The notes under the pieces were generated by a model. It searched no databases, had not been told where the DNA came from, and was given only the letters and a program-made list of their open reading frames with translations. 64,000 nucleotides of DNA, taken from Ginglymostoma cirratum (lineage: Eukaryota). Within the stretch, counting starts at the first letter, position 1. Every line of letters begins with the position of its first letter. The stretch covers positions 19,108,471 to 19,172,470 of the forward strand of contig JAHRHZ010000035.1 in assembly GCA_024137785.1 (NCBI GenBank). Direction: 5' to 3'. Below are positions 21,301 through 63,375 of this stretch, piece after piece. The position numbers were made by a program, and so were the translations under genes.

Positions 21301-23758
21301 ATTATGTTTTTGACAGTATTACAATTTCAATTTGGAATACCATGCATATTAGTAATAAGTATACTCAAATGAAATTCCATTGCCTGATATTTTAACAAAG
21401 AATTCATTGCACATTCATTTTAAATGGGTTAATGTATTGACCAAAGTTGCAACTGCATGAAGTGTTCGTACCTCACAGCAATACTTCAGGGCCTGTGATT
21501 TTTATGATTTAACTAGCCTCTCCCTCAATAAAATACAACTGAAGCATTGTCCTTATCGGGTTTTTCCTTGCGACTGGTTCAGTGGCTGCAAGGGTGTTTT
21601 CCTGGCGGTGGAAGTGTTGAATAAAGTGTTTTGCACATAGCCTCTTTACACGGTTGTTGTTGAGGGGAAGTAACCACTACAGCTGTACAGTGGTAGTGTG
21701 GAGGAATACTTAAAAAAGCACAATCGTCAAAGAGTAACTTAAATAAATACGGTGTGGGGCATGTGTTTCAAACTAAATTCTTCATGGAGGCCTATGATTT
21801 TAATTTGCATTTATGAGGCTGGCCATAACTCACTGGTGATACATTCGGTCGTTCTGTAAATTAAAATACAAATGACCTTCTCTGGCCAGACCTCCATGAA
21901 GGATCTTCTGTTTATTGTTCTTTCTCAAGTGTGAGAGCCTCTCAGTTCACAAAGTCATGAAACTTATTCTCCAAGTGAACTGTTGGGTGATATCAGCACT
22001 TGAATTACTTCTGTTTTCTCCTGCAATGCTAGAAGGTAAAGAAAATCTCCTCAGGCATGTTCCTAATTGCAGGGCTGAATGTTGAGCCTCTGGCAGAGCT
22101 AGGAACTAAGTTGGGTGGGTGTAGTGCTAAAAATAGCAGAATAGCATGCTAGACCCCAAGATTTGCCCTTGTCCAGGAGTATTTTCCAACAGTTGGTGTT
22201 GGGGGAACAAGGACAGTAGTGTGTCTGCTCCTATGCAGACTGAATCTGATTTAAGTAATTAATAGGTCATTTGAAGGAGGCAACCGGATCTTCCAGTTAG
22301 TTTCCAAGTTCCTTAAAGCAGCCCCCTGATGGTAGGACAAAGGGGCACCACTTTAGGGGCATCCCCACCAGTGGTAGGTGTCCCACAATGGCCATTTTAT
22401 ATTTACATTTTGAGAAAATTGAAAAGTGGTTACCCATTGTGTTGAAGGGTTTGATTGATTTGTGTTTGATTATGCTCGTTGGTTCTCTGATCTATGTTGA
22501 CTATGCTTGATTGCTCAAGGCTGTGAGTGGAACTGGAAAGCAAATTATTCAGAAAGCCTTCCAGACAAAAGACCTGGGGATCAGGGTGAGAACATGTGTG
22601 TTTGGAAATCCATCAGACTCTGAGATATTTTAAAGTACTGTAAATAAATTGTCATAAATCAGAAACTAGTATCATGTCTGCACTACTTCGAGAGAAATCA
22701 GACAGATAAGATTTACAGCTTACTGGTGAATACACAACAGAAAATTAGTGACAAGGATAGCTGAGAAAAGGTTAACTTTGCCAGCTCCAGAACAATTTCT
22801 TTCATCGCCGTGGAATCTTCCCATAACCTGGAAATAATCAATTTTGGGGTTCAAGATATATTTGCTTGCAAAGGGAAGGTTTGGACATAGCAGCAGTTCA
22901 TAAGAAAGCAGTGTTTGTTTATCGTCTTAGTGTAGAAGGCTAATGAATATTTGAGTGGTTCAGATACGATTTTATAGAAGATATGGGATATATTTAAATT
23001 ATGTACAATATTTAGCATTCAGATTGTTAAAATAGTGGCATATGGGTTTTGGTTATTTTTAGGAAGAGTTTACGTCATACAGTTCGTCTGGAACAATTGA
23101 CTAATTCAGTATGTGTCAGAGAGCAGGGAACCTCCCATAGCGTGAATGGAAAATTATTTATACTGGATGGTGTATAATAGATGGAATAAATATTGAAGAC
23201 CTTTGGCTTGTTTTCAATTTAGAATAATCAAAGGTTTATTTTGTTTCAGAAAATTAAAAAAATTGAATGTTTTTATGGCAGTTCGAAGACCTGTCTGGGG
23301 TCAGGAGCAAGTGTAATCTCTCTCCTAGAAAAGGGTTTCTACCAGAGTACTTAAGAGAATTAAGCTATCTCAGTAGAAAAATTTAGTCTGTACAACTGTC
23401 AGACCAGTACTATTTGGTTAGAAATCCGCAGGTTATCAGAAGCTGAAAAAGTTTATGCTCTCAGTTTTGTGAGTATTTGCGTAAGGTGATTCATAGTCCA
23501 CAGCTCAGAAATTGGGGAGAGAATCAGCTAAGTAGAACTTAAAGATTTGATATGAATTTCTCTGGATTTGACTCACTGTAAAGAGATGGGGAATATGTCA
23601 AAATTTTGATTTGTTGAGTTTTTAAAAGTTTTTCTAACTGTATTCTATATCCAGGTTTAGAGATAAAAGGTACTGCAGATGCTGGAGAATCCGAGATAAC
23701 AAGCATGGGGCTGGATGAACACAGCAGGTCAAGCAGCATCATAGGAGCAGGAAAACTT

Positions 23759-23786
23759 GACGTTTCGGGCCTAAACCCTTCATCAG
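23759..23786 (-). ncRNA. Minimal hammerhead ribozyme catalytic core (type I, dimer-type helix III)
   Basis: CUGAUGA + extra A + stem II GGG/CCC + GAAAC GUC; ACGU palindrome; helix I disrupted at the inversion junction. Confidence 0.6.
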
Positions 23787-23833
23787 AGGGTTTAGGCCCG
23801 AAACGTCAAGTTTTCCTGCTCCTATGATGCTGC

Positions 23834-24233
23834 NNNNNNNNNNNNNNNNNNNNNNNNNNNNNNNNNNNNNNNNNNNNNNNNNNNNNNNNNNNNNNNNNNN
23901 NNNNNNNNNNNNNNNNNNNNNNNNNNNNNNNNNNNNNNNNNNNNNNNNNNNNNNNNNNNNNNNNNNNNNNNNNNNNNNNNNNNNNNNNNNNNNNNNNNNN
24001 NNNNNNNNNNNNNNNNNNNNNNNNNNNNNNNNNNNNNNNNNNNNNNNNNNNNNNNNNNNNNNNNNNNNNNNNNNNNNNNNNNNNNNNNNNNNNNNNNNNN
24101 NNNNNNNNNNNNNNNNNNNNNNNNNNNNNNNNNNNNNNNNNNNNNNNNNNNNNNNNNNNNNNNNNNNNNNNNNNNNNNNNNNNNNNNNNNNNNNNNNNNN
24201 NNNNNNNNNNNNNNNNNNNNNNNNNNNNNNNNN
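23834..24233. other. Assembly gap (400 N)
   Basis: N run; flanks 23741-23833 and 24234-24326 are an identical 93-bp sequence. Confidence 0.99.
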
Positions 24234-25099
24234 ATAGGAGCAGGAAAACTTGACGTTTCGGGCCTAAACCCTTCATCAGAGGGTTTAGGCCCGAAACGTC
24301 AAGTTTTCCTGCTCCTATGATGCTGCTTGACCTGCTGTGTTCATCCAGCCCCATGCTTGTCTTCTATATCCAGGTAGCCTGGTTTGTTTATTTCTGTTTT
24401 TTTCTTTTGTGTATTAAACTTCTGTCTGTTGTTAAAGAAACTTCGTAGTCTCATGTGAGTGTTTCAGTTAATAACTGCCATATTAACTAAAATCTAAAAC
24501 AAAATCCTTCAAGCCAAATTTCATTCTGACTTGCCCAGTAGTACTATCAGCTGGGATTGTATCCATGTCTATATTCGATACAGTAGCAAGTGCTCTTGAA
24601 AAGTACTCTGGGCCAAAGAAATGTTTCATGAATTAATTATATCGGCTCTGTCAGAAATCCCTGGGAAATAGTGAGCTGATCAGAATAGAGGCAATTGGCT
24701 TCTATATGTAAATTACTAACCAATAAACTAATTTGTGACCATTTAACTGTAAAAACTTAACTTCCATGAATTAGGAAATGTTTCCTAATGGAAGTTGGTG
24801 AACTAACTTTGGAAAAAGCCACGGCAGTCTCAACCAAATCTGCCATGTTAGATTCAAAGAGGTTACACAAAAATGCACCTTTAGACTCAGTGTTGCGGAT
24901 ATAATGTGCCCTATTAGCTGGGATACAGGGGTTATGGACAAAGAGACACCAGCAGTCTTGCCACCACCTATCCCATCATGGTCAGACACCTTCGAAACAG
25001 TGCTCATCAAGTCACAACGCCATATCCAGCTCAAAGGACAAAGTGCAATTCATGCTCAAACTCAAATTATTTTGCAAAGCCACACAGGTCATTGAAGTG

Positions 25100-25700: not shown

Positions 25701-25714
25701 ATGATGATGACAGT

Positions 25715-30484: not shown

Positions 30485-30948
30485 AGACTCCAAAAACAGT
30501 CAACAATCCTGACACCATCCAGGATAAGCAACCTGCTTGATTGGCACCACGTCCACAAACATCCCATCACTGACGCTCGGTAGCAGCAGTGTGTACTATG
30601 TACAAGATGCACTGCAGAAATTCACCAAAGATCCTTAGAAACAACAGTCCCAACCCATGACCACATCCATCTAGAAGGACAAGGGCAGCAGATACATGGG
30701 AACACCATCACTTGCAGGTTTCCTTCCATGCCACTCACTGTTCTGACTTGGAAATGTATCACTGTCCATCCACTGTTGCTGGGTCAGAATCCTGGAATTC
30801 CTTCCAAAAGCATTGTGGGCGTACTTACAGTATATGGATTGCAGCGGTTCAAGAAGGCAGCTCGCTATCACCTTCTCAAGGGTAACTAGGGACGGACAAT
30901 AAATACTTACCCAGCCAGTGACATCTATATTCCATGAGTGAATAAAAA
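30485..30948 (+). mobile_element. 3' end of L2/CR1-group LINE
   Basis: DTIQDK..CLIGTTSTNI..SVAAVCTMYKMHCRNSPKIL; tail CTTCTCAAGGGTAACTAGGGACGGACAATAAA..GAATAAAA; homologous to 41070-41580. Confidence 0.85.
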
Positions 30949-37295: not shown

Positions 37296-37304
37296 TGTGC
37301 GACT

Positions 37305-37675: not shown

Positions 37676-37725
37676 ATTAAGACATGTTAGCAGGTCAAGT
37701 CCCACCAGAGACAATGGAGTATTTA

Positions 37726-41580: not shown

Positions 41581-41764
41581 TGTATATCAATTTTATAATA
41601 AAGATGTACAAAAGGAGGTAAGTGTTGATGATTACAATCTCAGCCAAACTTCAAATATAAAAAAATTACCAATTTCAGTTACTGACAAGTACCAAAGGGG
41701 TGGTAAACTCAAAGGTTTACCACATCATACATTGTGTTCTTTAATCAACTCTGTATAATATTTC

Positions 41765-42070: not shown

Positions 42071-42071
42071 G

Positions 42072-45439: not shown

Positions 45440-45545
45440 AAATAAACACAGAAAATGCTGAAGAAACTCAGCTGGTCTGACAGCAGCTGTGGAGAGAGAA
45501 ATAGAGTTAATGTTTCAAGTCTAGTGTGACTTCTTCAAAACTGAT
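45440..45545 (-). mobile_element. Single arm of Penelope-related hairpin element (family 2), degraded
   Basis: ACAGAAAATGCTGAAGAAACTCAGC..GAGTTAATGTTTCAAGTC..GACTTCTTCAAAACTG parallels 47470-47565. Confidence 0.65.
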
Positions 45546-46723
45546 TATATTCACTGACCACATACTTCTGAGCCCACCAAATGGGCCATGTTACAACTCG
45601 CTGTCCTTTTATGTGCATAGACGACATCATTTGCCTGACCTGTATATTTGCATTAATTTTAAAATTGCAGAACGATTTTGTGATAATGTTACATGCCCTG
45701 ACATAAACAGAATTGAGAACAGAAGATGTGAGATCCCAAGAAATGTATCACATTGATTCAAGATCTTGAGGTGTAATTGTTAACAAGTTATTTTTCTTAA
45801 TCATCATGAATATTATTTTTCTGGGATGATCCCCCATTTATCTCCTATGTACGTTGAAAAAAATTCATGTTTCATAAAGTTGAGAAAATCAGCGTGGTGC
45901 TCCAACATTGAAACTACCAGTGAAGTCTTGAATGTACTGAAAAACAGTCAAAGTAAATAAATATTTACCCTGATTGGAATCCCACGTCATGCAAATCAAG
46001 TCCTTTACAATTCTGTATTTATTAGTGCACATTTGATTTAAATTAGCCATACTAATTCTTGCAATCCTTTGTAAACCCACCAGCAGCAGCTCACCTCCCA
46101 TTGTGTGCTTCATTTGTGTAAAATATTATAAAAGAATTGTGCAATTTATAGCATTTAAACATGGAAATGAAAGTGGATCAGAAATCATTAGCAATTTTTC
46201 TTAAATGAGGGTCACCTATTTTTTCAATAAATACGTTTATGACCATTTGGATTGAATGGTTTTTATACAGATGTTAACTTACATGAATAAAAAGAGTCAG
46301 AATACAGCCTTTATGTTATTCGTTTTCATTTCACTTTAATGATGACATTCCAGGTAAACACTGGCATCATTGCATGCCTTGGAATTTGGTGTGAATTAGC
46401 CACTGAGGAGCATGATTCTGACAGTTCCTATTATTAGTTTTGACAGAATAATTTCTATAAAATTTTAACTAGGCTCTATTTTTCAATTTAACATTCATTT
46501 CTGTCCAGTTGGCTGCACTACTTGGTATTACTACAATCATCCAGTCATATTTTATGTATCATAAGTGAAATATATTAAAATAAATATATATATTTTTAGG
46601 GGGTAGAGTAGTCATTGTATTACTGGAATAGTAATCAGAAGACATGAGTTCAAATCCCACCATTACAACTGCATGGAGAATTTAAATTTGGTTAACTAAA
46701 CAAACTTTTGACTGAAATAAATT

Positions 46724-47400
46724 TAGGCTGTCTTTTGCCATTTTTTTAGGTGCTTTATTTTTGGGGAGTTTCCTAGTGGGTGCGCCATTATGGCTCAAAG
46801 TAACTTTTCTCTCACTATCCTCCACTCCTCACCTCATTAATTACAATAGCGGCCTCCTTGCCATCCCCTTCTTGTGCAAACATGCCACTGGAGAAAGGAA
46901 ATACCCACTGCTGCTGGCACCTTCTGGCATTTGAGCTGCTGATGCCATGTTTAAAGCTCAGCTGCACATCCCACTGCAGACATTATAAGTCAGGAGCTAC
47001 CTCTAGCACTGTCCTGTTAAGAAACAAAACATCTCAGGAGGAGAAGCCAGCACCTTTCTTTCAGATAGGAACCTGGACGTCCTGGTGGATGAAGTGGTCA
47101 AGAAGAAGGGCATTCTGCATTCGATGGACCACCAGAGAAGGTCAAAGCACCAAACACAACAGCCCTGGATACAGATGGCAGGCAGGTCAGTCCAGGGTAA
47201 GGCAGAATGGACAGCAGTTTGAAAAAAAGCCAATGATCATCTGCACTCCTCAGGGATAAATGCCACTAACTTCTCTCTACTACTAACTCACGCACTCTAA
47301 CTCTACCGCTGCATACGAACCTCACCAATGCTCATAGACTACAAACATCTTGGGTTACCAACCTTGCTGTGAAACCAAAAACAGCCAAAGTAGAACAAGC
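46724..47400 (+). mobile_element. Harbinger fragment with Myb/SANT exon 1
   Basis: SDRNLDVLVDEVVKKKGILHSMDHQRRSKHQTQQPWIQMAGR..RQNGQQFEKK/ANDHLHS; upstream CCTCATTAA motif shared with ~5190. Confidence 0.75.
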
Positions 47401-47432
47401 TAGGTACCTCTCCCCAGAAATTGTTCTTTAAA

Positions 47433-47656
47433 GCCTGAAAGAACTGCGGATGCTGTAAATCAGGAATAAAAACAGAAGTTGCTGGAAAAGCTCAGCAGGT
47501 CTGGCAGCATCTGTGAAGAAAAGTCAGAGTTAATGCTTCGGATCTGGTGACCCGTGCTCAGAGCAGCTCTTCTGAGGAAGGGTCACCAGACCTAAAATGT
47601 TCATGATGCTGCCAGACCTGCTGAGTTTTTCCAGCAACTTCTGTTTTTGTTTGTGG
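47433..47656. mobile_element. Penelope-related hairpin retroposon (family 2)
   Basis: Arms AAAAACAGAAGTTGCTGGAAAAGCTCAGCAGGTCTGGCAGCATC and its rc; core CTGAGGA-A-GGGTCACCAGACCT-AAAATGTT; TSD ATTGTTCTTTAAA / ATTTTTCTTTAAA (47420-47432 / 47657-47669). Confidence 0.8.
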
Positions 47657-48813
47657 ATTTTTCTTTAAAATCTGATTGGTGGAGCTTATCTCATGATGTC
47701 AATTAACCCTTTCAGGCACTAACTGTCTTATAAAGCAGCGATCATAAAACCATTGGATTGTCATAAATAATAAACTAGTTCACTATGATCTTTAGGGAAG
47801 GAAATCTGACACCTTTAACCATCTGGACTACATGCCACTCCAGATCACTACAATATTCTGTGACTCTCAACTATCCCCTGAAGCAAGCAACTCAGTTGTA
47901 GTCAAGAAAATGGATCATCACAATCTTTGTAAGGGTAACTAGGGATGGATAATAAATGCTGACACTGATAGCGACCTTGTGAAAGAATTGAAAGTAAATC
48001 ATATTTTGAACCTTACTGATTCAGCGATTCAATACTATTGGAGAATGATACTGCAATAACATTAAAACACAAGCAAAAAAAAATTGTGTTAATCACTTCC
48101 CATCTCCATTTATATCACATAAGCAGCATTAGCCTGCCCTGGAAAACTGAAAAATAAATATGAACAATATTGGAGCCAAAAATGAAAGCTCCCAAAGCCA
48201 ATATGCCATAACAAAGTTTGAAGTACAATTTCATTCTTCTGCCAACTATTTACTTAACTCAAACTGCGTAAAAATATAACATCTGAGCCTGTGTGAATTT
48301 AGAATACTCTTTAAGCTGCATGAGCCTGGTGCGTAAAGTTGGGTCTGAGATTACCTCTAGATTTATGTTTGAAATCACGGACTTGAGCTGAACTATAATG
48401 CCCAAACCCCCAAGTTATGGTGTGAAAAAAGTCATGAGAACTGCTGAACCATTTACGAGGAGTAATATGGTTGGAGTTTAATAGAGGAACTGAGGCTGCA
48501 CAGTAGAAATAGAAAGTTGCAATGTACTTGTTTTAAATAATAAAGTCCTGGATGTATAATATTTAAGAATTTACTTTAAATTGAAAAATGGAAATCTTCA
48601 TGTAATCACACTGAATCTGAAAGGGCCAAGAACTGTCACTCAGTCATTGCTCCTTCAGGATATATCGTGAACTCATGGGAACTGGAGGAAGGGCAAAAAT
48701 AAAAGTAACATAGATGTCAAACCAATGCACCAAATATATTAGTACGCCAATAAAAAGGAAACTCTTCCCAAAAAGACTGGCAACAGGTTAAATAGAAGTT
48801 GTTAAAAGTTTTT

Positions 48814-49004
48814 GAGACAGTAGGAACTGCAGATGCTGGAGAATCTGAGATTACAAGGTGTAGAGCTGGATGAACACAGCAGGCTAAGCAGCATCAGAGG
48901 AGCAGGAAGGTTGATGAAGGGTCTAGACCAGAAACGTCAGCTTTCCTGCTCCTCTGATGCTGCTTGGCCTGCTGTGTTCATCCATCTCTACACCTTGTTA
49001 TCTC
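48814..49004. mobile_element. Penelope-related hairpin retroposon (family 1)
   Basis: Inverted arms; core TTGATGA-A-GGGTCTAGACCA-GAAACGTC; perfect TSD TGTTAAAAGTTTTT (48800-48813 / 49005-49018). Confidence 0.85.
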
Positions 49005-49519
49005 TGTTAAAAGTTTTTCTTTCCTTTAGAGTTCGTGATAAGCACTTTAAAACTGAGCAGGCAGCTCAGTTTGTGCAAAAAGAAATTGTCTGGAACTGAA
49101 ATGCAACAGCAACTATGCAGAAGATTTAGGCAAATATCAACAGTCTGCAATATTTACTGTTGTATTTTTAAATGCGAAGTTTTCAATGTTTCCAGCAGGT
49201 GTTCAGTAAGGTTGCTTCATTTACAATATTCGTTTTCCTTTTTTTTTAAGTAATAGTCTCAAACTCCCTTCATTGCTTGTTTATCGCATATAAATAACAA
49301 TATCCGTTTTTATTCATCAGTGTTCGGCAAATGCTTCCCACAGCATAAATTGGAAAAGTGTTACAGATTTTTCATTCTTGTCCTTCACGTATCTGTAATC
49401 TTGCAGGTAATTATTCAAAGAAGCAAGCTTAAGGTGCTAATTTGAAATGACTATCCAGATATTATTAGGTATGTATTTCTAACTAAACAAAATAGTATTC
49501 CTTTAAGAGCACCATACGA

Positions 49520-49770
49520 ATTTGCAACCTCTACCACCTAGAAGGACAAAGGTCCACACCAGGGACCAGCCTGACTTGGAACTCTATTGCTATTCCTTCA
49601 TGTCACAAGGTCAAAGTCCTGGGACTTCCTTCATAACACTACTATGAATGGGCCTACATTCTAAGGACTGCAGTGATCCAGTAAGGTAGCTCAACAGCAT
49701 ATTCTCCAAGGTAATTTTAAATGGGCAATAAATGCTGGCCTAGCCAGTGATGCCCACATCCCATGAACTT
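49520..49770 (+). mobile_element. 3' end of L2/CR1-group LINE
   Basis: CTAGAAGGACAA..CTGACTTGGAA..GGGCAATAAATGCTGGCCTAGCCAGTGATGCCCACATCCCATGAA. Confidence 0.8.
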
Positions 49771-50744
49771 CACACGGAACAGCACTTAAGCTAGACCAGA
49801 CTTTTCCCTTAGAGGCAGGTTCAATACCAAGTAGTAAACCTAGAAACAAGTTTTCCAGGTGTTTGGGCCTTAGTAATCTAGAGACCTGTATGGTGCCAAG
49901 TGAGTGGCCGAGGCTGTGGGGATGGAAGCGGGACATCAGGGAAGCAGGCCACATTCTGGCTCAAAGCAGGAACAGTTGCTGTGGCTGAAAACATTAATGC
50001 ACGAATGGCAAAGTTCAAATTTCCCACATTGCAGAAGGCCTGGGATCTGGAACAGGGTAGACTGATGATCTGTTTTATATATTCAATGAGTGCTTGTTCT
50101 ATAATGGGGGCCATACTTCTCTGTCAGGCTCATTACATCTCTGAACTGCATCTTCTCATAGAAATGTCCAGTTGACCATGTCTCCAAGTCCAGTATGTAG
50201 ACTGCTTTGCTGAAAGTTGGAAAACTGGCCATGGATGAACTCTTAAAGGGCCCTTTGCCTCATTTGTAAAAGTGGGTAGCTTTGCAAGAACAAGACTGTC
50301 AGACAAAGTAAACAGAGGCCTTTTTCCTGCCTTGTCTCTGTTCTATCCTGATTTGGGACAGGAAAAGCTGAATCACCAGAGTCTACCACGTGCTGTCCAT
50401 ATTTATTTGAATTTTGGGGATGTTACATCTGAAATCACCCTTTCATAGTCAACTCTTTATCTGTTCATCAGTCTCATGCGCTGCTTGACCCCAGGTCCTT
50501 TATTATTCTATGGTGGCAAAAATGACCAGATGCTCAATGTCGTCAACGATATTTTCAAAAGTCACCAAGAAAATTGAGAGGATTGAAAACCTAGATAGGG
50601 CATTAAAGCAGATTATAAATGTTAGCTGTCCTGATTTTATCCTTCAGTTCAGAATTTACTTCAGATTGCTCTCTGCCAAAAGGAAGTGGCATCATATGTT
50701 ACAGATTGACCTTCTGGCTGGAATCTGAGATGATGCAATTGATG

Positions 50745-50837
50745 ACAACAAGGTGCAGAGCTGGATGAACACAGCAGGCCAAGCAGCATCAGAGGAGCAG
50801 GAAAGCTGATGTTTCCGGTCTAGACCCTTCTTCAGAA
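50745..50837 (-). mobile_element. Single-arm family-1 element with hammerhead-like core
   Basis: rc CTGAAGA-A-GGGTCTAGACCG-GAAACATC; TSD ATGCAATTGATG / ATGCATTTGATG (50733-50744 / 50838-50849). Confidence 0.8.
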
Positions 50838-53800
50838 ATGCATTTGATGGTCAACCACACCATCTTAAAACGTTATGAATTCTGGCCTAATTTCTATTCT
50901 GAACAATGAGAAATTAAATAATTGAGTCACCAAAAAATGTTACTGTTTCTGACTAGGTTATACTTGCAAACTTAAACCTACTCTAGGCTCATTAAAAGTC
51001 AAAGATATAGCACTCAAGGGAAGCATAAATCCTCCTTTAACTATTTAGTGTGATGAAGGCACAATTAAAATTGTGAACAGAAAGTGTTGACTTAACAGGA
51101 ATTTGTAGCTCACATTATATTATCAACAGTGAATTTAGTTGGTCTGATGGTACAAAAAAAATTCACAATGCAGAAGAGAGTTACTTTAATAGACATTTAC
51201 ACTAGCTCTTTGCTGAAACAATCTAAAATGAATCCTGTGTGCCCAAACTTTCCTATTGTCATTTAACATTTCTTCACTTTAAATATTTGTCCAGATTTCC
51301 CTTAAATATTTTTAATAATCTTCCCTTAATAATCAATCATCTTCTGCAGCCAAATACTGGACATGGTCCACCCAGGTTTTTGAAGTTATCAGCATCCAAT
51401 TGAGTGGTCCGAAAGCAGGTTATTCTTGAATGGCAAAGTATTTTCCTTTAAACCTCACCTCAAGAGAAGTCTAGATTGTGGACAGACCAGGAATAGCAGC
51501 CCAAACCAGACCATTCTCATTTCTCTTGCCCTCCCATCCTTGCAGGGCTGCCAGCTGGACCATTGGAGCAAATTAGTTCTCTTGAAGCCAGTGGGCAACC
51601 TCTAGCATCCCAATTGCCTCCTGTGGCTCTCACTGGAAATATGTTTCTGAGGCCTGAGGCCCAATTTCAATCGGGGTTCAAGTCTCTGGCGAATAATGTG
51701 TGGCCCCAGCCATTCTGCGTGTGAAACAGGGCCGGTTCAAAACCACTGCACGGCCTGTCAAACAACTCCATATGCACTTCCTTTTATACTAATGTCTGAA
51801 TTCTTCAAACACTCTCTTTACTCGACACATCATCAAAAGCATTCTGATCATTTATATCTGCTGGATTTCTTGTTTCTATCATAGATCATTTTGTTTTTAG
51901 AAAGAAAATATCACTGACTTCCATCAACTCCATGCCAAATGCCCAGATTTGTAGTTGGGGATTTTTGATCACTTTTTTTCCTTTACGGGGATGACCTAGC
52001 AATGAATTATGCCTAATGTTGTATTTTAAAATAGTGAATTCACACAGGTTTGAGATCAGATCAAGCTGCAGGCCTTGATATTGTGTATAAATGAAAACAA
52101 GAAAATTGACCTGGAAATGTTTAGTGGACTCACTCATGGAGAGAGATTGGCATGTTTCTTAAAATTATTTTTCTTGTTACTAAGAAAGAATTTGTGTTAC
52201 TTTGAAATAAAATGACAATTGATTTCATCTGTTGGTTCATATATTTACCTGTTTATTGATTTATATTTGGCCTTATCCCACTGAGTGTTTCGGGCCACGT
52301 TGAGAAATTTGGAGATGTGCACAAGCGTGTCAGTTAAAAAGATCAGGGCAAATTTTCAATGGACTAAAATTCCAAGTTTGCAGATCAACCACCCACCTAA
52401 CTTTATTTTCCAACAATTCAGATAAGGAACAGGTAGTTTCTGCAATGTATGTTTAGCACACCAATAGTTTTACACTGTGGGCAATGAGTTGAAAGTTTAC
52501 CTCATGGTATATAGTTCATATCACAAGGGGATCTTCTTGTTAGGTTCTTCGCTATTATATAATTAGACGTTGGCCTTTCATCAGGACCATGATGGAAGCG
52601 ACTAGCAGAGTGTGGCCAGGAGAATATCAAAGATAGACCTAAAACTTTTAATGCACCTGTACTTTTGACTTTGCTTTGAAATAGTTTGATTTGTGTTTTC
52701 TCCTGAACAAAACTGAAGCATCAGAGCTTCAGATGAGATTGATTAAAAGTCAAGATGGGAGCTACACTGTTTCAATGTTCAAAGGTAAATGCCACAAATG
52801 AATTGACTTTCCAATTCCGAACTAAACTGGCAAAATAAATCTCTATAAGTGCCAGAAGTACACAGCAGACCTATGAGAGAGTAAGAAATGGGAAAGCTGG
52901 TTTAAGGTTTCATAGAGAATAAAGATTTCACAGACTTTTTATGATAACCCATCCCAACATTTTGTTCTTTTTCCTAATACGTCTTTCCTTTTGGTCTAAA
53001 TTCAAAATTAAGATAGTGGAAAAATGGTGAATGGAATTTGAACCAAGCGAGGATGGGTATTTGTGCACTTTGTTGGCATCTCATCATTTTCCAGCAGTGT
53101 TTAGCCATTCATTTCACCAAGAATGATTGTTTTTAAAGTACGTTGGCTTTAACCTGAAGGATGATATTGTTAGGTGGAAACTGCCACATACCACAGATGG
53201 TTGTGGAGAATCATATTAAGAACATAAAAAGGGACATACAAATTCTCAAGCCCACTCTGTCGTTTATTACGATTGTGGCTTGTTTCCCATAATTCCTGAT
53301 TGCATGGAAAGGGGCTTCTAAAATCATTCTGACTACTCACAGTTCACACACAATGTGATATGTTGATTATCCAGAGTGTGGATTTTGCACATCAGTTTAT
53401 TGAAACTCTGCTGCTCAGTCTTTTCAGAAATGGAAAGAAAAATGACTTGGCCGGTCTCAATTGTGCAATCACTATTTAAGATCATTAGTCCAGTTATCAT
53501 ATGTTACACCTCAGAGGAAAGTGAAGTTGAGTGGAATATGTACTGCCCAAGATAACATTGATAGGTTTAGACTGTACAGGCTGAGCCAGTTGGACTTGGC
53601 TATTATCAAGCAAATATTAAATTCTGACAAATAGCTGGCTTCTCACTAAAGCACAACAGTCAGAAGTCTGAATTAATTTATATTCTAATTTTGTTTTTGC
53701 TTTCCTTTTCACGTTCCATTGCATGACATCATGAGTAGGATGGCCAAGGTAAGAGGCTAAACTGTGTCACTCTGAGACATCAGAGTGCACTTAAGCCACA

Positions 53801-56369
53801 ACGATTGGCAGGAGAAACATGAAATGGAAGCATGCTTATGTATAATCTTAAACATCTTTAATATTGTAAAATTGAATGAGGGATGTATTATTGGCAGAAT
53901 TGTGAAGATCTATCATCAGTAATTCGGCCCTAGGATTTACTAAAATGGGTACTTATGATCACAGCGTGTCTATAGAAAGCCAATAACTGCCTTATAAGGG
54001 AGTTTAACTGTATTGTTATCAGTGAATCTGTCAGTCTAGCTAGGTAGAAAATGTTTCACAGATGTATTTTATTCAGGAAAGTTTGCAGATTGTTTTACAA
54101 TTTTTATTTTAAACCATGCCAAGGCACATAATTTTAATTAAAAACACGAAACTTCTGAATTTAAAAAAATACATCTGTTCTACTGAATTTATAAATCTTT
54201 TTATCTAACAGCAACAGGCTGATAGAAAGAAAAACAGCATGAAATACCACAGAAACTGGAAGGTGTTTGTTAAGTCTCAAGTTACATAATACAGCTCATT
54301 TTCTGCCCTCACAAGATCCTGATTCTAGGGAATATTCTATGTATGTCGTTATTTGCAATGAGTAAAAGAAGATAAACCAATCTTGTTTATAACAATATTT
54401 ATAACAGACGGTGTTTCAGAATTATTTCTCAATTAAAAAAAGCATAAGGCCAATGTGATCAACTATCCTGTCATTCACATATACGCATTATCCCAAACCA
54501 GGGAAGTTAATCATAAATTAAAATTACAATCAATATTCAGTCCAACTACAGTATGAAGACGACGATAATATAATAAACATCATGTATGGTGGTGGTGTTT
54601 TTTTTTCTACATCAAAGTCCTTGTGGATCACAGATCTTAAATAGATTTTGTGATGTCTCAAGCTTTCTGAATGACTTTTTAAGAAGAAAATTGTATTCCC
54701 TATCCAGAGTCTTTTGTTTCCAACCCACAGTCCATCCTGACCATTAATTTTGGAAGACGTTAGTAGGGGACCATGTTTCAAAGGGACGAGATGTGAAATA
54801 TTCTTTGTTTTTTAAAAAAATGGTTTTAAGTGCTTAAGGGAAAATTGAATTATTTTGGACTCATTTCAACAGACTGGGAACAATTAAACAATTTGTTTTG
54901 AATTTTTTGAAATCAATCCTTTAGTGATTAAACCCACTGGATGATTTCAAAGTTTAGCATTTTGCACTCAGTAAACGGAAAAGAGTGAAACACATATCAA
55001 TCTAATATGTAGTTCCATGGGAAAATCTGAACTTAAACAATCCAACTTATTAATTAAGTTCTTTTTTAATCAGAAAGGCTTTACCTTCATAACAAGTAAA
55101 ACATTGCAGTTAAATCAATGCAGAGGCTGTCATTAACTACGACCCCAATATAAATGTTAGATTATGTGAAATGTAAATGGCCTAAATGTCAATTGGGCCT
55201 GATTTTTAAAATAAGTAAGTGACCCATTTTCAGCCAGTTTCCTTCGGCTCCTTTTTATCTGAAGCTATTGATGCCTTGTTAGGAAATGTTTCCATGGACA
55301 CCAAGCACCCTATGTTTGTCTTACACTCTACGCAGATGAATTTAAATTGTGAATTTCAATATATTATTTACTAACTTATTGGAAACCTGAATCTATCCTC
55401 ACTTGATGTCCACATAAGCACGAGGAATGCTGGAAGAAACGGCAATTGGGAATCCAGGCTGGGTTCTCTCTCTCTACGTGGAGTGCAAAGGTTAATTGTG
55501 GGATTTGTACTACAATTCCATTGATCAGTGTCTACCAGTAAAAACTGGATGATTCAATCCAAGAAGCAGTATATTACTCGTCTTGTAGATCGACTCTGCT
55601 TTATACCAGTTTCGTCTGTAACGTTTGTCAATTGCCACAGGTAGTGATTCTGCCACAGACAGGTACCAGTTCATGATGCTGTTCATTTTGAGAGTAACAG
55701 AGTTGGGTGTCAATTGCCTGGACCTATTTGTTATCTATCCCTAATAGAGTATGGAAAAATAAACCATTGCTGTTAGGCAGAGGTCACAAATTAGCCAGGC
55801 TGTATTGATGCTTATCAGAATATCGTTCAGCCAGCGGGTTTCTAAAGACCTAGATGCTGAAGGGCCACTTGCTCAATGAGACAAGAAAAACAGTCTGCAG
55901 TTTATGACCTTTGCTGTTCCTGTTCACACTGGCTGCTTCTAAATGTTTAAATCTGTGGGACCATTCGATGTAACGTTGTAAAATCAGGGCTGGATGGAGA
56001 TCCTATTGTTTTCAACATTGTCTTTTGGAGTATAGTGACATATGAGATGCTAACTGAAGAATCAAGCTTCCAACAGCTGGTAGTGAACAGTTTTGCAAGG
56101 TGCTGCGATGCGCGAGTGGCAGACAATGCTACATGGCTGTCAATGAGGTGGGAATATATAATTTTGGCAAACTGGGACAATGCAGCAACATTCAAATGTG
56201 TTCCACCTTTATTCTAAGATATCAGGTGAAATGATTGATTGGAAGTCACCATAATCCCACCAGACCATAGGACTGCTCTCGCGCTACAGAGAACTGACTT
56301 GTGCTGGATTAACCTGAGGGTCACCACTCCTGAAAGTAATATGGTTCTTTTAGCATAAAAGAGAGAGTT

Positions 56370-56620
56370 GGTGGCTTACTTGAGGTGCAGTGGTGGTGTC
56401 CCTACCCCTAGGTCAAGGTCAAGTTCCTCCTGCTCCAGAGGTGTGTACTAACATCTCAGAACAGGGTGGTTAGAAAAATAGTTTTTGAAAAAGTTAAAAG
56501 ATAGGTTTGGGGCTCTTGTGATGCAATAATAATGTCCCTACCTCAGAGCCAGGAGGACTAGGTTCAAATCCCACCTGCCCCAGAGTTGAGTAATAATATC
56601 TCTGAACAGGTTGCTTTCAA
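56370..56620 (+). mobile_element. Two adjacent ~110 bp tRNA-derived short SINE copies (56370-56480, 56508-56620)
   Basis: Both read GG..CTT..G(G/A)TGCA....TGTCCCTACC..GGTTCAAATCCCACCTGC..CAGAG..ATCTC.GAACAGG; A/B-box-like motifs. Confidence 0.65.
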
Positions 56621-56942
56621 AGAAAAAGTAAAAGAGAGATTATAAGAGCTTGACCATTAGCCAAGAGCAGATTAAGTGCCTCCACATACGGGCCCAAGTT
56701 TACACCATGATGGTGAAAATTTCAGCGGAGGTTTGGAATCCCAAGTCCTGGTCCCAAACCTGGTATTCCTCATTTTCACAGAGACAAGAATGGCTGCAGT
56801 CCATGGTTTGCATATGTGCAGTTCCCAGTGACAACATTTACTTTCTGTGAAATTGGATTTGGGAGTCCCTGAAATCTGGGTGTTCGACGATTAGAGCAGG
56901 TAGGAGCAGGTCTGTTTTCAGTGTATTTCTTTTGAATAGCCC

Positions 56943-57085
56943 CAGTTCTGGGCAACGGTCACTGAACCCGAAACAGTAACACTGATTTCTCTTCACAGAT
57001 GCTGACAAACCTGCTGAGATTTTCCAGCAATTTCTGTTTTTGTTTCTGTTTTTCAGTATCCACAGTTTTTTCAGTTTTTATTTAG
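56943..57085 (+). mobile_element. Single arm of family-2 hairpin element
   Basis: AGTTCTGGGCAACGGTCACTGAACCCGAAACAG..CACAGATGCTGACAAACCTGCTGAGATTTTCCAGCAATTTCTGTTTTTG. Confidence 0.7.
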
Positions 57086-58324
57086 TGTTTATAGATTTTA
57101 GTTAAACCTTGTGACTGCACTGATACTCATTGCTCCATAAGGAAGATTTATTATTATGTTGTTAAAATGCAGAGTTTTTTTTAGTGTTAAGCTGCTACTT
57201 TAATAGTTTATGTTCTTACTTCCAAATGCTTTTTGATATCATGATCATCAATTCTTTCAGTTTGTACTGGAAGAGCTTTTAGCCTCCCTAGTTACCTATA
57301 CCACATTTATTTCCATTACAATCTATCCGAATAGACAGGTACAATATTCATTGCACATGATGACAGGCTCTTCTATATGCTAAGCTAGCAGAATGTAAAG
57401 ATGTTTCCCTTAACTCAAGCTCAGCTCATGATTTTCAAACTATAGGCTTTAACCAACAGGATGCATCTCTCCTATCATCAACTGCCTTCACTTTCTTGGT
57501 CCCTATCACTCTAAGATGTATTTTCTAATGAGAACAGTCCATGTTTCAGACTCTCAACCAGTAAAGTTTTTCTCTTTCGTACTTTTCGATGTGGTATGTT
57601 GAAGTGAAGGTGTGCAGAATAAGATACAAAAGTTGCAGCAGAGATTCTTGATATGTTTGACATTAGTTTCGTGACATTTATGTCCATTAATTTTTCAAAG
57701 TGAACATTTGCATCTTGTCTCTTGGTTTTCCGAGCCAGTTATGTTGTTAACAAGAAAGCAAATGTGAGCAGTAGAGTTCAGCGGTCAAGGTTCCAGGTCT
57801 GACAGGAGTTCCAGCAGCACCTCTAACTCTGGCATTCATTTCCATTATGCTCCAAATGTCAGGAAATCCTGTCATTATTAACACTGCCCCTTCCAGCCAC
57901 AGCCCAGCACCTTAGCCTAAGTAGGGTCCAGTTTCATGCTGCAACCACTTAGGGAGCATAAACAAACAAACACTGCACCAGTAACGGATTCCTGCGATTA
58001 CATCAATTCCGGCCACAATAGCTAAGATTTGAAACAAAAACTAAAAGAAAGTCCACTTGAAAAGAAAACAGGAGTTACAAAAACAGCTTCCAAATGTATA
58101 AATGCTACAAAATGGTAAGTAGGTATTAAAGATATGGCTTAGTTAGGATTGAATATTCTGTAAACAAAATACATCAGGACAAAAAGATATAAGGGAACCC
58201 TCTCTGCTGAGAATAAACTTGCTGAGAAAGGAAGCATTATACTATGAGGAGCGACATAAAGAGCACATGTTGTCAACCAGGGCTTAAGTAAATAATCATT
58301 GCTGTCATTTCAAGGTAGGACAGA

Positions 58325-58830
58325 GTAAGAGCTGCATTGTTGTCGAGGCCATTTTTGTTTAGGTGAGACATTAGACCTGTTCAGTTAGATAGACACAATC
58401 CCACAGCACTATTTGAAGAGCAGAGAGCTTTCTAGCATGCTGACCAATGTTTGTCTCTTAACTAACACTGACACAAGTCATCTGGTACTAAAGTAATAAA
58501 ACGTCAGACTCTGAAAATCTGAAATTAAAACAGCAAGTGCAGAAAATACGCAGACAGTCAGGCAGCATCTGTGCAAAGAGAACCATAAATAGAGTCTCAG
58601 GTCAATGACCTTCCAACAGCATGGGTGACTTTTACTGATGGAAGGTCATTAACCTAAATGTTAATGCAAATTATCAGGTATTCATTTCCCAATTTATGCT
58701 TGTGAATCATAAATTGCGAAGTGTGCAAGTTGGTTGCTACAATATTGCCCACTAACAATGACCAGGCCTGGAAAGTGATATAACATCTGTCAGACTTTGG
58801 AATGTCCTAATGATGTGAAATATTAATGCA
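58325..58830 (+). mobile_element. Degraded Deu-domain SINE interrupted by a hairpin element (58490-58665)
   Basis: AATCCCACAGCACTATTTGAAGAGCAG; the insert has CAGGTCAATGACCTTCCAACAG..CTGATGGAAGGTCATTAACCT inverted pair. Confidence 0.55.
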
Positions 58831-61741
58831 GTGTGTTCGTCACTGTGAAATCAATGGAAACAACTGATCACAAAGACCTTGAAATAACACAGTAGGATAT
58901 ATGCAGGGGTCTAAAATTTTCTTTCTGATTATTTTAGTGTGGCTGTTGAACCATTTGGTGTATCAGAAAAGAAAATAAGACAAGGCTATTTATTGTAGAA
59001 TCAATTTTATTACAATTAATTAGCCTCAATGGAAGTCATTTGTAATAGTTGCAATTTTTAAGCTGACTTATTTGCCAGCTGAATGCTTTTAGATCACGTA
59101 GAAGAAGCTGTGTCTATTTTCCACTATTAGCTAGGTAAATCAGATGGAAGGTTTCATCCATGCACAGTAATATAACTTTAAAATTATTTATACACAGTAA
59201 GGTCAAAGGAGCTGAAGACTTACAATACCTGTCCCAGATTCCCTGCCTATAAGGAAGAATCACAAAATAACATTTTATTTTATATGTATGTTTAAAAAGT
59301 GGGACTAATCTGCAGCATGACAGTTGTATGGGAAAGTTTCTTAACCAACGTATTTTGTGAAGTGATCTGAAATAACTTGCCACGTGCTGACATTGGCTAT
59401 GATTAATGACAAACCACTTCACCCTACTGCACATGCTAGAGGCCTTGATTCCTGTGAATGGTCAGTGCACTAAGAGTCCTTTGAGACCTCTCCTTGGCAG
59501 TCTGCACAAACAGAAACACGGAATCCTCTCCCATCGAACGAAATGTCAAGTGCTTTGGCTTTACTGAAGATTAATTTTATTGATGATTACAACTTCTCCG
59601 TCTCAAGAGGCAAATATCCTGCAGTATTATTGATGGTCTCTCAGCATCTGCTGCACTTGGATTTACAGTAGATTCAAGTATTTGCAAGTGTTTATTTTGT
59701 TAAAAGTATAAAAATGTCAAAAGCTCAAATAAGTTCTTAGCTATGCCATTTGTATGGATCCACATACTTACATATGTGTTTTTCGATCATAAATAGCAAA
59801 CACATCTTGCCAAGAATATGTTAGTGACTATTTTACTTCCAAGAAGCCATATGTTGCAAATAATGAAAGCTTTCCAGAGACACAAACTGTGCACATCAAG
59901 AATCTAGAACGGTTTAAGTGCCTGAAACAAACATATTTACCATAACATCAGAATCATTTCCGAAACTGAGGCCTTTTGCAATGATTATATATATAATCAT
60001 TTGGACGTATATATATAACCAATGTGAGGGTAGAGTTCGAAAAATCTGAGATATTCCTTTGCCACAATCCTCTACTTTTTTGCAAGGATTAATTCCCTGT
60101 TCCTGTCCTTCTCCAAATCTTGGAATGGCAACTGACTTCTGCCTTAAATCGTTATAAACTTTTGCTTCCTTGCACTGTTTGTAACTTACCTCCTTTCATT
60201 TGGGTATCTAACGAAATACAGACTGCTCTTCCCATGTCAGTACCTTCACTCAAGGCCTTCCCAGTTGTGGAGATTTGGGCTTTAATGCTTTTCTCAGTCC
60301 TTGTATCAAGCAGAGAAAGGAGCATAATGTGGGCAAGGGGACAGTGTGCAGATGTGGATGGGGAAGGTTGCTTAATTTATCTCAACATTTCTCAATGGCA
60401 CATCAGAAATTCTGAAAAAACACAGGTGACGGAGTTCACCAAGGCACATCCAGGACCTGCAGCTCCTTGGAGAATGTGCACAAAAATCATTTTAATGGTT
60501 TGCTTGGAGAAAGATCAGAAGCAAGGCAAGAAACAAAAACTTAATAGATATGTTACCAAAATAATCTCAGTGTGTCATAACTCATTTGCAGCAGGAGTCA
60601 TATGTTCCAGCATTTTAGTCAGGAGAAAATAATTCCACCCTGTTATGGAGATTTAATTTCCATTAATTTACACCAGATTGGGACAGTCCAATCAGTCTCT
60701 GTGCTGAATGAGATGTCCAATAGACATCTCAACCTAGTACTGTCTCAGAATGAAAAAGGGTATTCTTTTCTTAAGGCAAGTGTTGCAGGATTCTAACCCT
60801 TACTCAGAGACTCAATAGAGACCTCCAAGTGTTGCTGTCATGAGTCTGCTTTGCCAGGCTGCCAATCACCAACAGGACTTTGGGAGCTGCAATCAACAGC
60901 ATTTTCTCGTCTTCCAAGTGATATTGTCAAGATCCATTCTGGCTCTGAGTGCTTTCAAATACATAAAGTTGGCATTCTTTAAACTGTTGGAAATTGCTGA
61001 GGAGTGCAGTTCTTTTAGAAAAAGAAAAAAAATAGAAGGATATTTGCCCATTTTAACTAATTTTGCACCAATTTCAAAACACACAAAATGCCTTCTTATT
61101 CCTGTTTGTCTTCCACTGTGCTTGAACAGGCGCATTTTGAACTAGGAAACCCAAGATTTTTTTCAAATTATCAACTGAATGTCTACTGCTTGTCCAACTG
61201 TGACCGTGGCTTATGGTCATTCCCTACCCTCCTACAACCCTTCAGTCCACTCCAACCTCTCCACTGTACTTGTTTGCCATTGCAACTGGCCCATGTGGTT
61301 ATACACTTAGCCACTTCATTGAAACAGACAAATTTGTTTACATGGTTTATCTTTCAAGTTAATTCAAGTGCGTCCAAAGGCCACCATTCTAATCTTCATT
61401 TATTTGTCATTTATGCCATTGGCAGTATCATTCATGCTGACATGTTCCAGATTGACTCATTATTGACAAAGTATTAGACAAACCAATCTTTCCTGCAGTT
61501 TACTGTTGGCAAAGCTAAAGCCAAAGCCAAACTTTCCAGTTTTTACCAAAATGCCTCCATCTCTGAGTCCACCTGTCTCCCCATTTGCCTACTGATGCTA
61601 AATGAATTTATCCAGTTTGCACTTGAGTGGGATTTTTTTTTTCCATTTTCAATACATCATAAACATTTCATTCTTTCTGGAACTTTGCCTGCTTACATAC
61701 CATCTTCTTCTGTCACATCACTAGAATTCTAATCCACATGT

Positions 61742-62145
61742 CACCCCTTTTAGTCAGAAGGCTCCAAATTTAAGTCTCACTCCAGAGTGAGCATTCCATT
61801 CTTTCATGAGATATGAGTATCACTGACAAGACCAGAGTTTGTTCCCGTCCCTAATTGCCATTGAGTTCAACAATCTAGGCTGACATTCCATCTCAGTGCT
61901 GAGAGGGCCCTGTACTCTCAGAAGTCCATCTTTTGGACGTGGCATTAAATGGAGACCGTCTCATGTAAAAGATACCATGGCATTATTTTGAAGAAGGCCA
62001 GCAGAGATCTCCCTGGTTTTCTGGCCAATATCCATCACTCAAACAGGTCTCTAAAAGCAGATTATTTGTTCATCATCATATCGTTAGCATAGGGATCTTG
62101 CTGTCCTTACTCAACTGCTACGTTTTCTACATTACCAGAGTGATA
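61742..62145 (+). mobile_element. Deu-domain SINE with a short antisense LINE-tail insert (~61795-61865)
   Basis: AGTCAGAAGG..CACTCCAGAG..AATCTAGGCTGACATTCCA..CAGTGCTGAG..GTAAAAGATACCATGGCATTATTTTGAAGAAG. Confidence 0.7.
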
Positions 62146-62179
62146 TTGTGCAATCTTTGGCAAACATCTCCATTATGAT

Positions 62180-62363
62180 AACACAGTGTAGAGCTGGAGG
62201 AACACAGCAGGATAGGCAGCATCAGGAAAGATTTCTGAAGAAGGGTCCCGACTGAAACGTCAGCTTTCCTGTTCTCTGATGCTGCTTGGCCTGCTGTGTT
62301 CCTCTAGCTCTAATACTGGGTTATCTCTGACTCCAGCATTGGCATTTCTTACTACCTTTGATG
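62180..62363 (+). mobile_element. Family-1 hairpin retroposon
   Basis: Core CTGAAGA-A-GGGTCCCGACT-GAAACGTC; perfect TSD ATCTCCATTATGAT (62166-62179 / 62364-62377). Confidence 0.85.
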
Positions 62364-62379
62364 ATCTCCATTATGATGG

Positions 62380-63375
62380 AAGGTCAGAAATGCTAATTGT
62401 CCCAAACACAGGATCCTCTTCTGCCTGGGGGTCTGCAGGTGACTGGTCGCTGGCAGGCCTCTGGGTGCTAGTGACCTCGGCATTTGTTCATCGACAGTTG
62501 AAGAGACATGGTAATGAGGTTTTCACCAGCCGATGCTCCCTACTCTAATCTCACCAACATAACCACCATGATGTCAGTATCTGAACTGGTGGGGGATGCA
62601 TCAAGCAGCCTTGCCTATTCATCCTCTGATAGATCTGTGCTGTCTTTCTCAGAAGTGAAGGAGGCAGTATTTTGTGGTGTGAGGGATAGTAGGAGAATCT
62701 GAGATAACAAGATGTAGAGCTGGATGAACACAGCAGGCCCAAAACATCAGCTTTCCTGCTCCTCTGATGCTGCTTGGCCTGCTGTGTTCATCCAGCTCTA
62801 AACCTTGTTATCTCAGTATGTTGTGGTGTGCCTCCTTGACCACAGAGACCAATGAAGAAAGAAAGAAGACCTTCTGAGGGCACATAGGTTGGACATGAAA
62901 GAGAAGATGTATCATGAACAAGGGGCAGCCTTTGTGGCATGTTCAACATACACTCACAGTGGGATGTGGTAGGAAATGGAAGAGTCACATAGCAATGAAC
63001 AATGATTCTCATTTGGATACTGGGACATGGATGTTTCTACATGTCCTTGGGACTGGTCCTGGTCCTTGCCAGACAGAGCTAAGATCCTCTCTTCGTAGAA
63101 GCTGTGGAGATAAATGTTGGGCACCTCAATACTCTTCCTGGTTCTTTCAGCCCTATTAGGGGTTAATTTCATCTGGAATGAGAGAAAGGGAAGGATTGAG
63201 TGAGATGAAAGTAGTTGGCACAACTGTTACTACAGTTGGGGCAAATTTGATGAGGTGTTCCGAGTGAATAAGTAAGCAGTGCAGAAGACGTGCAGGGGGT
63301 AGATGGGTGGGATTTGGAATGGATGAGAGCAAGTGAGTGAAGATGTTGTAGGCAACAGTGAGCATGGTAGACCAT
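62380..63375 (-). mobile_element. Harbinger Myb/SANT gene fragment (intron, exon 2, acidic exon 3)
   Basis: cattccAG|MKLTPNRAERTRKSIEVPNIYLHSFYEERILALSG (exon starts 63172), homologous to 5899-6051. Confidence 0.65.
62682..62813. mobile_element. Family-1 hairpin retroposon, core deleted
   Basis: Arms GAGATAACAAG..TAGAGCTGGATGAACACAGCAGGCC and rc; TSD CAGTATTTTGTGGTGTG / CAGTATGTTGTGGTGTG (62665-62681 / 62814-62830). Confidence 0.8.

Follow-up and report, generated by a model that had tools for sequence, protein, structure and literature searches.

What are the small hairpin-like repeats that recur in a 64,000-nucleotide stretch of the Ginglymostoma cirratum genome (assembly GCA_024137785.1, contig JAHRHZ010000035.1, positions 19,108,471 to 19,172,470, forward strand; below, the window), and from what RNA were they copied? 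A first-pass annotation of the window had described at least nine non-coding elements, most of them an arm with a truncated inverted copy, and had read them as retrozyme-like RNAs that carry minimal hammerhead ribozymes and are mobilised by a Penelope reverse transcriptase (RT). All nine that it listed are present in the window and cross-match each other, and their sequences identify them as derivatives of endonuclease-bearing (EN+) Penelope-like elements (PLEs) of the Penelope/Poseidon type, the parent of one old family, C, excepted. In our judgement it is probable that they derive from coding Penelopes of this genome: the copies, single or joined head-to-head, take in the first 95-130 bases of the parent (its pseudo-long terminal repeat, pLTR, and an optional tail) and were left when both ends of a staggered target cut primed on one capped, uncleaved RNA. 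Comparisons with published work refer throughout to excerpts of the cited papers.

Origin of the arms

The arms belong to family A (with subfamilies A1 and A2), family B and the older family C. A search of the genome for the GIY-YIG endonuclease returned 22,577 first-look candidates; in 29 of the 30 GIY-YIG loci examined, a family-A arm lies on the coding strand 0.2-0.65 kb past the endonuclease, and the arm of the window element at 23657 matches the pLTR of three of these loci (L031, L041 and L054) at 99.2% over 129 nt. We number arms so that +1 is the C of CUGA, which places the A of the preceding AUUU or AGUU at -3. Family-A arms are linked to one open reading frame (ORF) that encodes a PLE RT plus, at its C terminus, a GIY-YIG endonuclease, and match both termini of this coding element, ahead of the ORF start as well as behind the endonuclease. 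Ten of 29 loci with the ORF N-terminus extend upstream into a direct arm (one of the loci, L179, is a partial tandem), all 20 loci chosen for a tandem junction read from upstream sequence through the arm into the ORF start, and of the full-length copies L173 starts at -4 and L186 at -3, an inverted tail-less arm preceding L186. Because the first ATG of the long frame comes only at about +167, the arm is a 5' untranslated region, non-coding as had been claimed; the alignment to Penelope pLTRs likewise bears out the proposed Penelope origin. The A1 and A2 variants both occur in coding copies too. For the parent families we use the label Poseidon, presumably the right one from the order of the domains.

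Family-B arms lie behind Penelope ORF fragments (47-65% identity) at one compound locus of the unselected sample described below, and several family-B copies have homologous upstream sequence in common. Searching for a family-B parent with a short upstream pattern gave 200 genome matches, and among the 20 examined none had GIY-YIG upstream and one had an RT fragment. At L283 an internal Penelope RT fragment (59% identity) stands directly ahead of a family-B arm. For family C a coding parent was searched for and none was established.

How common these insertions are was measured in an unselected census of 746,695 non-N bases, 450 kb of them from the window's contig; its size was limited because 30 of the 60 sampled 10-kb stretches were wholly or mostly N. 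It holds 189 family-A and family-B arms in 147 insertions, one per 5.1 kb counting all lengths, and a profile search of the same sample adds 33 family-C matches. Extrapolated roughly to the 4.36-Gb genome, this gives 10^5 to 10^6 insertions. Two-armed insertions number 42, all head-to-head, against only 2 direct tandems among the 189 arms, and the window's layout, a tailed and a tail-less arm joined at their 5' ends, is found in the best 30 genome copies of the element at 48814 and 29 of the element at 47433. Here the earlier description needs reversing: the arms had been said to end in the ribozyme core, whereas the core begins the sense arm and the arms meet 5'-to-5'. Target-site duplications (TSDs) with a score of at least 10 flank 67 of the 110 hairpins with readable flanks (41/54 in family A, 26/56 in family B), as against 2 of 217 shuffled flank pairs; their length is 10-19 bp with a mode of 14.

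Inner ends and the probable start of the template RNA

The 5' ends of the arms, which are the inner ends of the hairpins, pile up just ahead of the core. Among 111 family-A ends, 28 fall within the 8 nt from -5 to +2, compared with 17 spread over the 291 nt upstream (-296 to -6); another 14 lie beyond -297 and 52 between +3 and +84. Of 78 family-B arms aligned to intact references, 49 extend to -3 to +2, and 8 of 65 go further when a reference with upstream sequence is used. (An apparent cluster of family-B ends at +27 to +30 was an artefact of a mutated reference and vanished with intact ones.) Hammerhead cleavage products are predicted to start at +29 in family A and +31 in family B. Starts no more than 2 nt from the cleavage site are seen in one of 78 family-B arms and eight of 111 family-A arms, and of the latter one is cut by a gap, three are alignment overruns and none is exact. 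The 5' ends are thus not at the cleavage site, which argues for template RNAs that had not been cleaved and of which most stopped at about -3.

What lies at -3? A TATTTAT box starts 31 nt 5' of the A at -3 in 55 of 68 family-A copies that retain upstream sequence, and in a single family-B copy with upstream sequence TCAGTT follows a TATA-rich box that is similarly placed; going by the consensus sequences, we take these to be a TATA-like box and an initiator-like motif. Moreover, where family-A arms start at -3 or -4 behind unrelated sequence, the first base that does not belong to the parent is G in 17 of 23 cases (P = 4e-6 against an expected 27%), and in family-B starts at -3 it is G in 10 of 14; over all cases the count is 27 of 45, while control arms truncated internally have G in 9 of 37. 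The 17 family-A junctions with G comprise five with an untemplated A-run and G, five in which the partner piece may provide the G, two with a longer filler and five with no Penelope partner. An extra 5' G on full-length retrotransposon copies has been attributed to copying of the cap. From these sequence features the point at about -3 is probably the start of a capped mRNA, and we read the extra G as a copy of the cap, by analogy with other RTs. A literature search found no report of an extra G or a cap at Penelope junctions.

The short copies begin at this inferred start and so are without the upstream TATA-like box. They are for that reason likely dead-end by-products of insertion, barring an internal promoter such as that described for Penelope of D. 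virilis (PMC2377424). A further kind of junction involves the same start: at L190, L196, L197, L198 and in the window's downstream flank, arms beginning at -4 are joined through an untemplated A-run and G to internal ORF pieces in the same orientation. This suggests that, on reaching the 5' end of the RNA, the RT adds bases and then switches to another RNA, by which partial tandems might arise.

Outer ends and the pairing of arms

The 3' ends fall into two classes about 33 nt apart in families A and B alike. In the unselected sample 50 of 111 family-A arms end at +86 to +103 (tail-less) and 51 at +122 to +131 (tailed); the two family-B classes hold 31 and 29 of 78 arms. The classes are strictly combined. 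Among 118 gap-free head-to-head pairs, 62 of them from loci picked by a tailed/tail-less query, 109 join a tailed to a tail-less arm and none joins two tailed arms; the 56 hairpins not picked in this way comprise 48 mixed pairs, 8 tail-less pairs and no double-tailed pair, where free choice would yield about 14. Long two-ended insertions (L061, L062, L065, L071, L077 and L080) obey the rule too.

The two arms of an insertion also resemble each other more than arms drawn at random. At polymorphic non-CpG sites, in 52 family-A and 53 family-B pairs with at least 25 overlapping columns, paired arms agree at 317 of 348 sites (91%) in family A, against a mean of 68% and a maximum of 79% in shuffled pairs, and at 355 of 429 in family B, against 65% and 72%. 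Rare variants are common to both arms 16 times against 3 in the shuffle comparison for family A and 27 against 7 for family B. Of 48 pairs, 33 have one arm or both reaching +2, among them 14 in which both do so, and in 8 the tailed arm ends at +71 to +106, near the second priming site. The junctions between arms are mostly individual, 99 classes among the 118 hairpins.

A model of two-ended priming

How could such copies arise? In the reading that we favour, RNA polymerase II would start at the initiator-like C/A just ahead of CUGA, 31 nt below a TATA-like box contributed by the preceding unit's 3' end. Candidates for the source RNA are the full mRNA of a partial tandem and a transcript read out from a 3' pLTR in which the box is retained. 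The RT-endonuclease would bind near the 5' end of this RNA and cut both target strands about 14 bp apart; one DNA end would prime at the end of the tail and the other about 33 nt further in. Neither cDNA could extend beyond the cap, opposite which it would often acquire a C, and the two cDNA ends would be trimmed and joined by microhomology or short fillers. Longer copies would come from read-through tandem RNAs by the same route. The hammerhead would be a conserved passenger of the parent that could act only as a dimer, and the integrated templates would not have been cleaved by it. We tentatively put forward a sharper version, whose chances we hold to be a little below even. In it the RT would work as an asymmetric dimer, priming from the two target ends would occur at sites that are obligately paired, on a single sense mRNA that is capped and uncleaved, and synthesis would run off at the cap; hundreds of thousands of stubs would record this in vivo.

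Several observations weigh against two-ended priming on a capped RNA. With 52 of 111 family-A 5' ends inside the arm, trimming or early stops are required. None of the eight family-B starts that match one parent base has the G, and the partner piece could as well have supplied it at five of the 17 family-A junctions. Nine of the 118 hairpins were called tail-less/tail-less (five cut by a gap or locus edge, two with a deleted tail, two unclear), and the choice of 62 by a tailed/tail-less query bears on the pairing count. Two RNAs made at the same source locus, or gene conversion at a later time, could likewise account for the concordance of paired arms. Finally, polyA reads of the family-A arm, discussed below, show no pile-up of begins or ends, and no RNA 5' end has been seen directly.

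The hammerhead motif and the RNA evidence

In A1, A2 and B, the intact classes found most often read CUGANGA-A-stem II-GAAACGU(C/U), with an extra base before position 10.1, a G10.1-C11.1 pair and a palindromic helix III. The proposal of a minimal type-I hammerhead with a palindromic ACGU is borne out in these classes, as is the observation that stem II differs between families yet covaries. Helix I is short throughout: in A1 it is AUUU/AAGU (4 bp) in 28 young copies and AUUU/AAGC (3 bp) in 27 older ones, in B AGUU/AACU (4 bp) and in A2 AUUU/AGCY (2 bp). A single copy of a further family, D (L146:7285), has helix I AGUU/GACU (4 bp), a different stem II and a C-rich upstream sequence resembling that of family A. 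In A2 (for example at 62231-62270 of the window) one base has been lost behind the cleavage triplet, leaving the 2-bp helix I, and this subfamily is abundant and widely amplified. Its amplification despite so short a helix suggests that hammerhead cleavage is not needed for insertion.

Most inserted copies have lost the motif. Core, stem II and ACGU are kept in 31 of the 189 unselected arms, and 14 of them keep G10.1-C11.1 and 3 bp of helix I as well. In the window both core boxes survive in only three arms, at 23786 (minus strand, duplicated at 24279), 50835 (minus) and 62235 (plus), and each has other defects: at 23786 the junction leaves helix I with 1 bp, the arm at 50835 has mutations in C11.1 and in the palindromic ACGU, and the arm at 62235 has an A2-type helix I of 2 bp and a degenerate stem II. 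A complete hammerhead occurs in none of the nine elements. An Rfam scan of the window, a check that the first-pass annotation had proposed, found no hammerhead model among its 20 matches at E<=5; the top matches were microRNA (miRNA) models, below gathering scores, which matched because of the hairpin shape. The conservation of core and helices across families points, from sequence comparison, to selection on the hammerhead in the parent lineages, with decay of the motif in inserted copies. A minimal PLE hammerhead without loop 3 requires a dimer (PMC4209133); RNAcofold, applied to the dimer, predicted a duplex other than the hammerhead. When the 5' end of a young A1 arm (L054, +1 to +30) is folded as a monomer, the core UGAUG is predicted to pair with CGUCA at the cleavage site. 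This fold would be an inactive form, and it is not conserved in family B.

The RNA evidence consists of one polyA run with useful depth. In it a family-A arm drew 40,999 unstranded reads, 93% of which continue into unlike sequence, as expected if arm copies lie inside host transcripts; the query for this mapping was a diverged 3' arm with a stretch of ORF, not a tandem junction, and is uninformative on starts. The unique flanks of 45000-63400 are almost readless in the run at 97% likeness, so that the suggested role as a source of double-stranded RNA hairpins finds no support at these loci. A read pile-up at 48931 was considered as a mark of cleavage and rejected: it adjoins a copy-specific mismatch at 48930 and not the cleavage site at 48939, and we read it as clipping.

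Alternative explanations

Might other routes leave the same copies? A non-autonomous family of the short interspersed nuclear element (SINE) kind would have as its main templates non-coding RNAs from truncated 3' pLTR copies with a TATA-like box or an internal promoter, moved in trans by Penelope RT. Its products would be identical in look to those of two-ended priming on coding RNAs, so only the RNA source would change. Thirty of 111 family-A arms still have upstream sequence from which the same promoter could be active, families B and C have left few coding remnants, rotifer pLTRs act in trans (PMC3846280), and the internal promoter of D. virilis (PMC2377424) offers a precedent; yet no diagnostic non-coding master lineage was seen, and the A1/A2 variants are shared with coding copies. 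We regard this as an unlikely account of the main templates. We see considerably less merit in the retrozyme-like cycle originally proposed, in which dimeric hammerhead cleavage frees an RNA, be it short, circular or the entire hairpin, that is then reverse-transcribed and re-inserted. The conserved core and helices speak for such a cycle, as does the recurrence of one family-A and one family-B junction class, six times each. The recurring family-A junction, however, falls on a GAAA microhomology, and mobilisation of the arms as units is at odds with their being the terminus of coding elements, with the mostly individual junctions, the scarcity of direct tandems, the 5' ends off the cleavage site and the small number of arms with a complete motif. 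Whole-hairpin re-insertion was also sought through a scar of A-to-G editing and rejected, there being no strand bias in the 118 hairpins (totals 127 against 115; the largest bias, 1 against 6, among 14 other changes).

The second arm might instead be made by fold-back or self-priming, whether an antisense template or the first cDNA is used, a route suggested for rotifer PLEs (PMC3846280). It would likewise yield concordant arms and palindromic junctions, and some junctions do contain templated fillers. It leaves unexplained why both arms reach the same 5' end in 14 of 48 pairs, why the tail-less arm has a fixed stop that matches an in vitro RT start, and how tail-only arms come to lie beside a complementary upstream piece; we think it very improbable. 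That the elements are miniature inverted-repeat transposable elements (MITEs), DNA transposons with long terminal inverted repeats, has a negligible chance of being right. Beyond the fold-back shape nothing recommends it: the arms are unequal, the TSDs vary in length, single arms have TSDs, and the identity of the arms to the ends of RT-GIY-YIG elements refutes it, in agreement with the earlier view that these are products of retrotransposition and not terminal inverted repeats.

The nine elements and other features of the window

Six of the nine elements have TSDs, three of them perfect 14-mers, just as first reported. The young family-A1 hairpin at 23657-24361 (both strands) consists of an antisense tailed arm (0 to +128) and a sense tail-less arm (+8 to +88), with the core intact on the minus strand and a perfect 14-mer TSD (23643-23656 / 24362-24375). 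The element is real, and its length had been overstated: a 400-N assembly gap (23834-24233) interrupts it, flanked by a 93-bp duplicate at 100% identity, so that the real length is about 211 bp. Young Penelope hairpins frequently coincide with 100- or 400-N gaps, here and at many other loci, and the assembly therefore under-represents intact young copies.

The other A elements are A2. The hairpin at 48814-49004 (both strands; antisense tailed arm +27 to +127, sense tail-less arm +2 to +94) is missing C3 and has a perfect 14-mer TSD (48800-48813 / 49005-49018). At 50744-50840 on the minus strand, a single tail-less arm (-4 to +92) begins at the inferred mRNA start; it keeps the core boxes with C11.1 and the palindrome mutated, and its TSD (50733-50744 / 50838-50849) is 12 bp with one mismatch. 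The hairpin at 62177-62363 (both strands; antisense tail-less arm +44 to +92, sense tailed arm -3 to +126) has a G preceding the start, the best-kept core of the window and a perfect 14-mer TSD (62166-62179 / 62364-62377). In the one at 62682-62813 (both strands; antisense tailed arm with an internal deletion, sense tail-less arm +15 to +96) the hammerhead core is entirely gone, and the TSD (62665-62681 / 62814-62830) is 17 bp with one mismatch. Family B is represented by a hairpin at 47433-47656 (both strands; antisense tailed arm to 47562, sense tail-less arm 47570-47651) with the cores of both arms mutated and a TSD (47420-47432 / 47657-47669) of 13 bp with one mismatch. No TSD was found for the remaining three: the old single tail-less arm of a B-related group at 45441-45545 (minus strand, -2 to +98, core mutated), the single family-B tailed arm at 56943-57080 (plus strand, -2 to +134, core mutated) and the old family-C hairpin remnant at 58489-58665 (both strands), whose stem II is of the AGGUC/GACCU type and whose core is degenerate.

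No host exons were identified in the window. Inverted repeats of 74 nt (88%) at 13954-14027 and 15777-15850, 1.75 kb apart and unrelated to the Penelope arms, flank an RT fragment of a long interspersed nuclear element (LINE) at 14053-14676 (RVT_1 match); they are possibly ends of a DNA transposon or of another inverted retroelement. A tandem array of about four copies of a 40-nt unit occupies 13452-13611, and another dispersed repeat family, SINE- or LINE-like, has fragments at 30499-30908, 41165-41567, 42136-42214, 47902-47961 and 49527-49766.

Relation to known systems

Much of this layout is already published, namely the arrangement of arms, the minimal hammerhead and the opposite-strand pairs (PMC3846280, PMC8557442, PMC4209133); what we add is the evidence on start site, extra G and pairing. 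EN+ PLE insertions have been described with a pLTR, an adjacent inverted 5' copy, a one-sided tail of 30-40 bp and a TSD (Pen2a_Av, PMC3846280; general scheme, PMC8557442). Our elements share with them the pLTR at both ends or partial tandems, the tail at one end, the inverted 5' copy and the variable TSD, and differ from the schemes in these excerpts in that insertions of the minimal form without an ORF abound (one per ~5 kb), the TSD mode is 14 as against 8-10 bp, and the inner ends lie at one fixed point. The study of minimal hammerheads in metazoan PLEs (PMC4209133) reported motif pairs 100-700 bp apart on opposite strands and ascribed most single motifs to truncated PLEs. Our motifs resemble those in the core boxes, the extra nucleotide before 10.1, G10.1-C11.1, the palindromic 15.2-16.2 and the short helix I, although here stem II has 4-5 bp instead of 7-8 and helix I at most 4 (2 in A2), because the RNA appears to start there. 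The closest biochemical parallel is target-primed reverse transcription by the Anolis Poseidon element PAc in vitro (PMC11167929), which has two internal RT start sites, cuts and extends both strands and uses uncleaved RNA; likewise our model has two internal start sites bounding the tail, two-strand extension and an uncleaved template, and it adds to the PAc scheme, as excerpted, the pairing of the two sites within an insertion and a run-off at the RNA 5' end. Unlike here, where the arm is a 5' untranslated region, the ORF of PAc starts inside its hammerhead. With metazoan non-LTR retrozymes (PMC7229834; bioRxiv 10.64898/2026.07.22.740005) our elements have in common that they are non-coding, related to PLE pLTRs and flanked by long TSDs, with a type-I hammerhead. 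Those retrozymes, as excerpted, are direct tandems with canonical hammerheads and circular RNAs, whereas our arms are single or paired in inverted orientation and their minimal motifs are mostly broken, direct tandems are rare (2 among 189 arms), and the unit boundaries do not lie at the cleavage site.

Two-ended priming has a counterpart elsewhere. In twin priming of L1, two target ends prime on one RNA and the two cDNAs cover non-overlapping parts of it; in our elements, by contrast, the two cDNAs usually overlap and use two fixed sites. In the literature excerpts searched we found no report of twin priming in Penelope.

Implications

The elements are an ordinary class of PLE debris, and the mechanistic evidence that they hold is moderately useful. 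At about one per 5 kb, such hairpins can be mistaken for MITEs or miRNA precursors, and the young ones lie on assembly gaps. How Penelopes come to insert as tandem or inverted copies, and what their hammerhead does, are open questions in the field (PMC8557442, PMC11167929). If paired priming on a capped mRNA is correct, the abortive 5'-end stub would be the default product of these elements, tandem read-through RNAs would be required for full-length copies, and templates that are cleaved, circular or antisense would be ruled out for these families. The stubs supply countable in vivo constraints, namely an RNA 5' end that is fixed and has an extra G, the strict pairing of tailed and tail-less arms, a single source lineage for each insertion and the absence of ends defined by cleavage; all of these can be tested in the existing in vitro PLE system.

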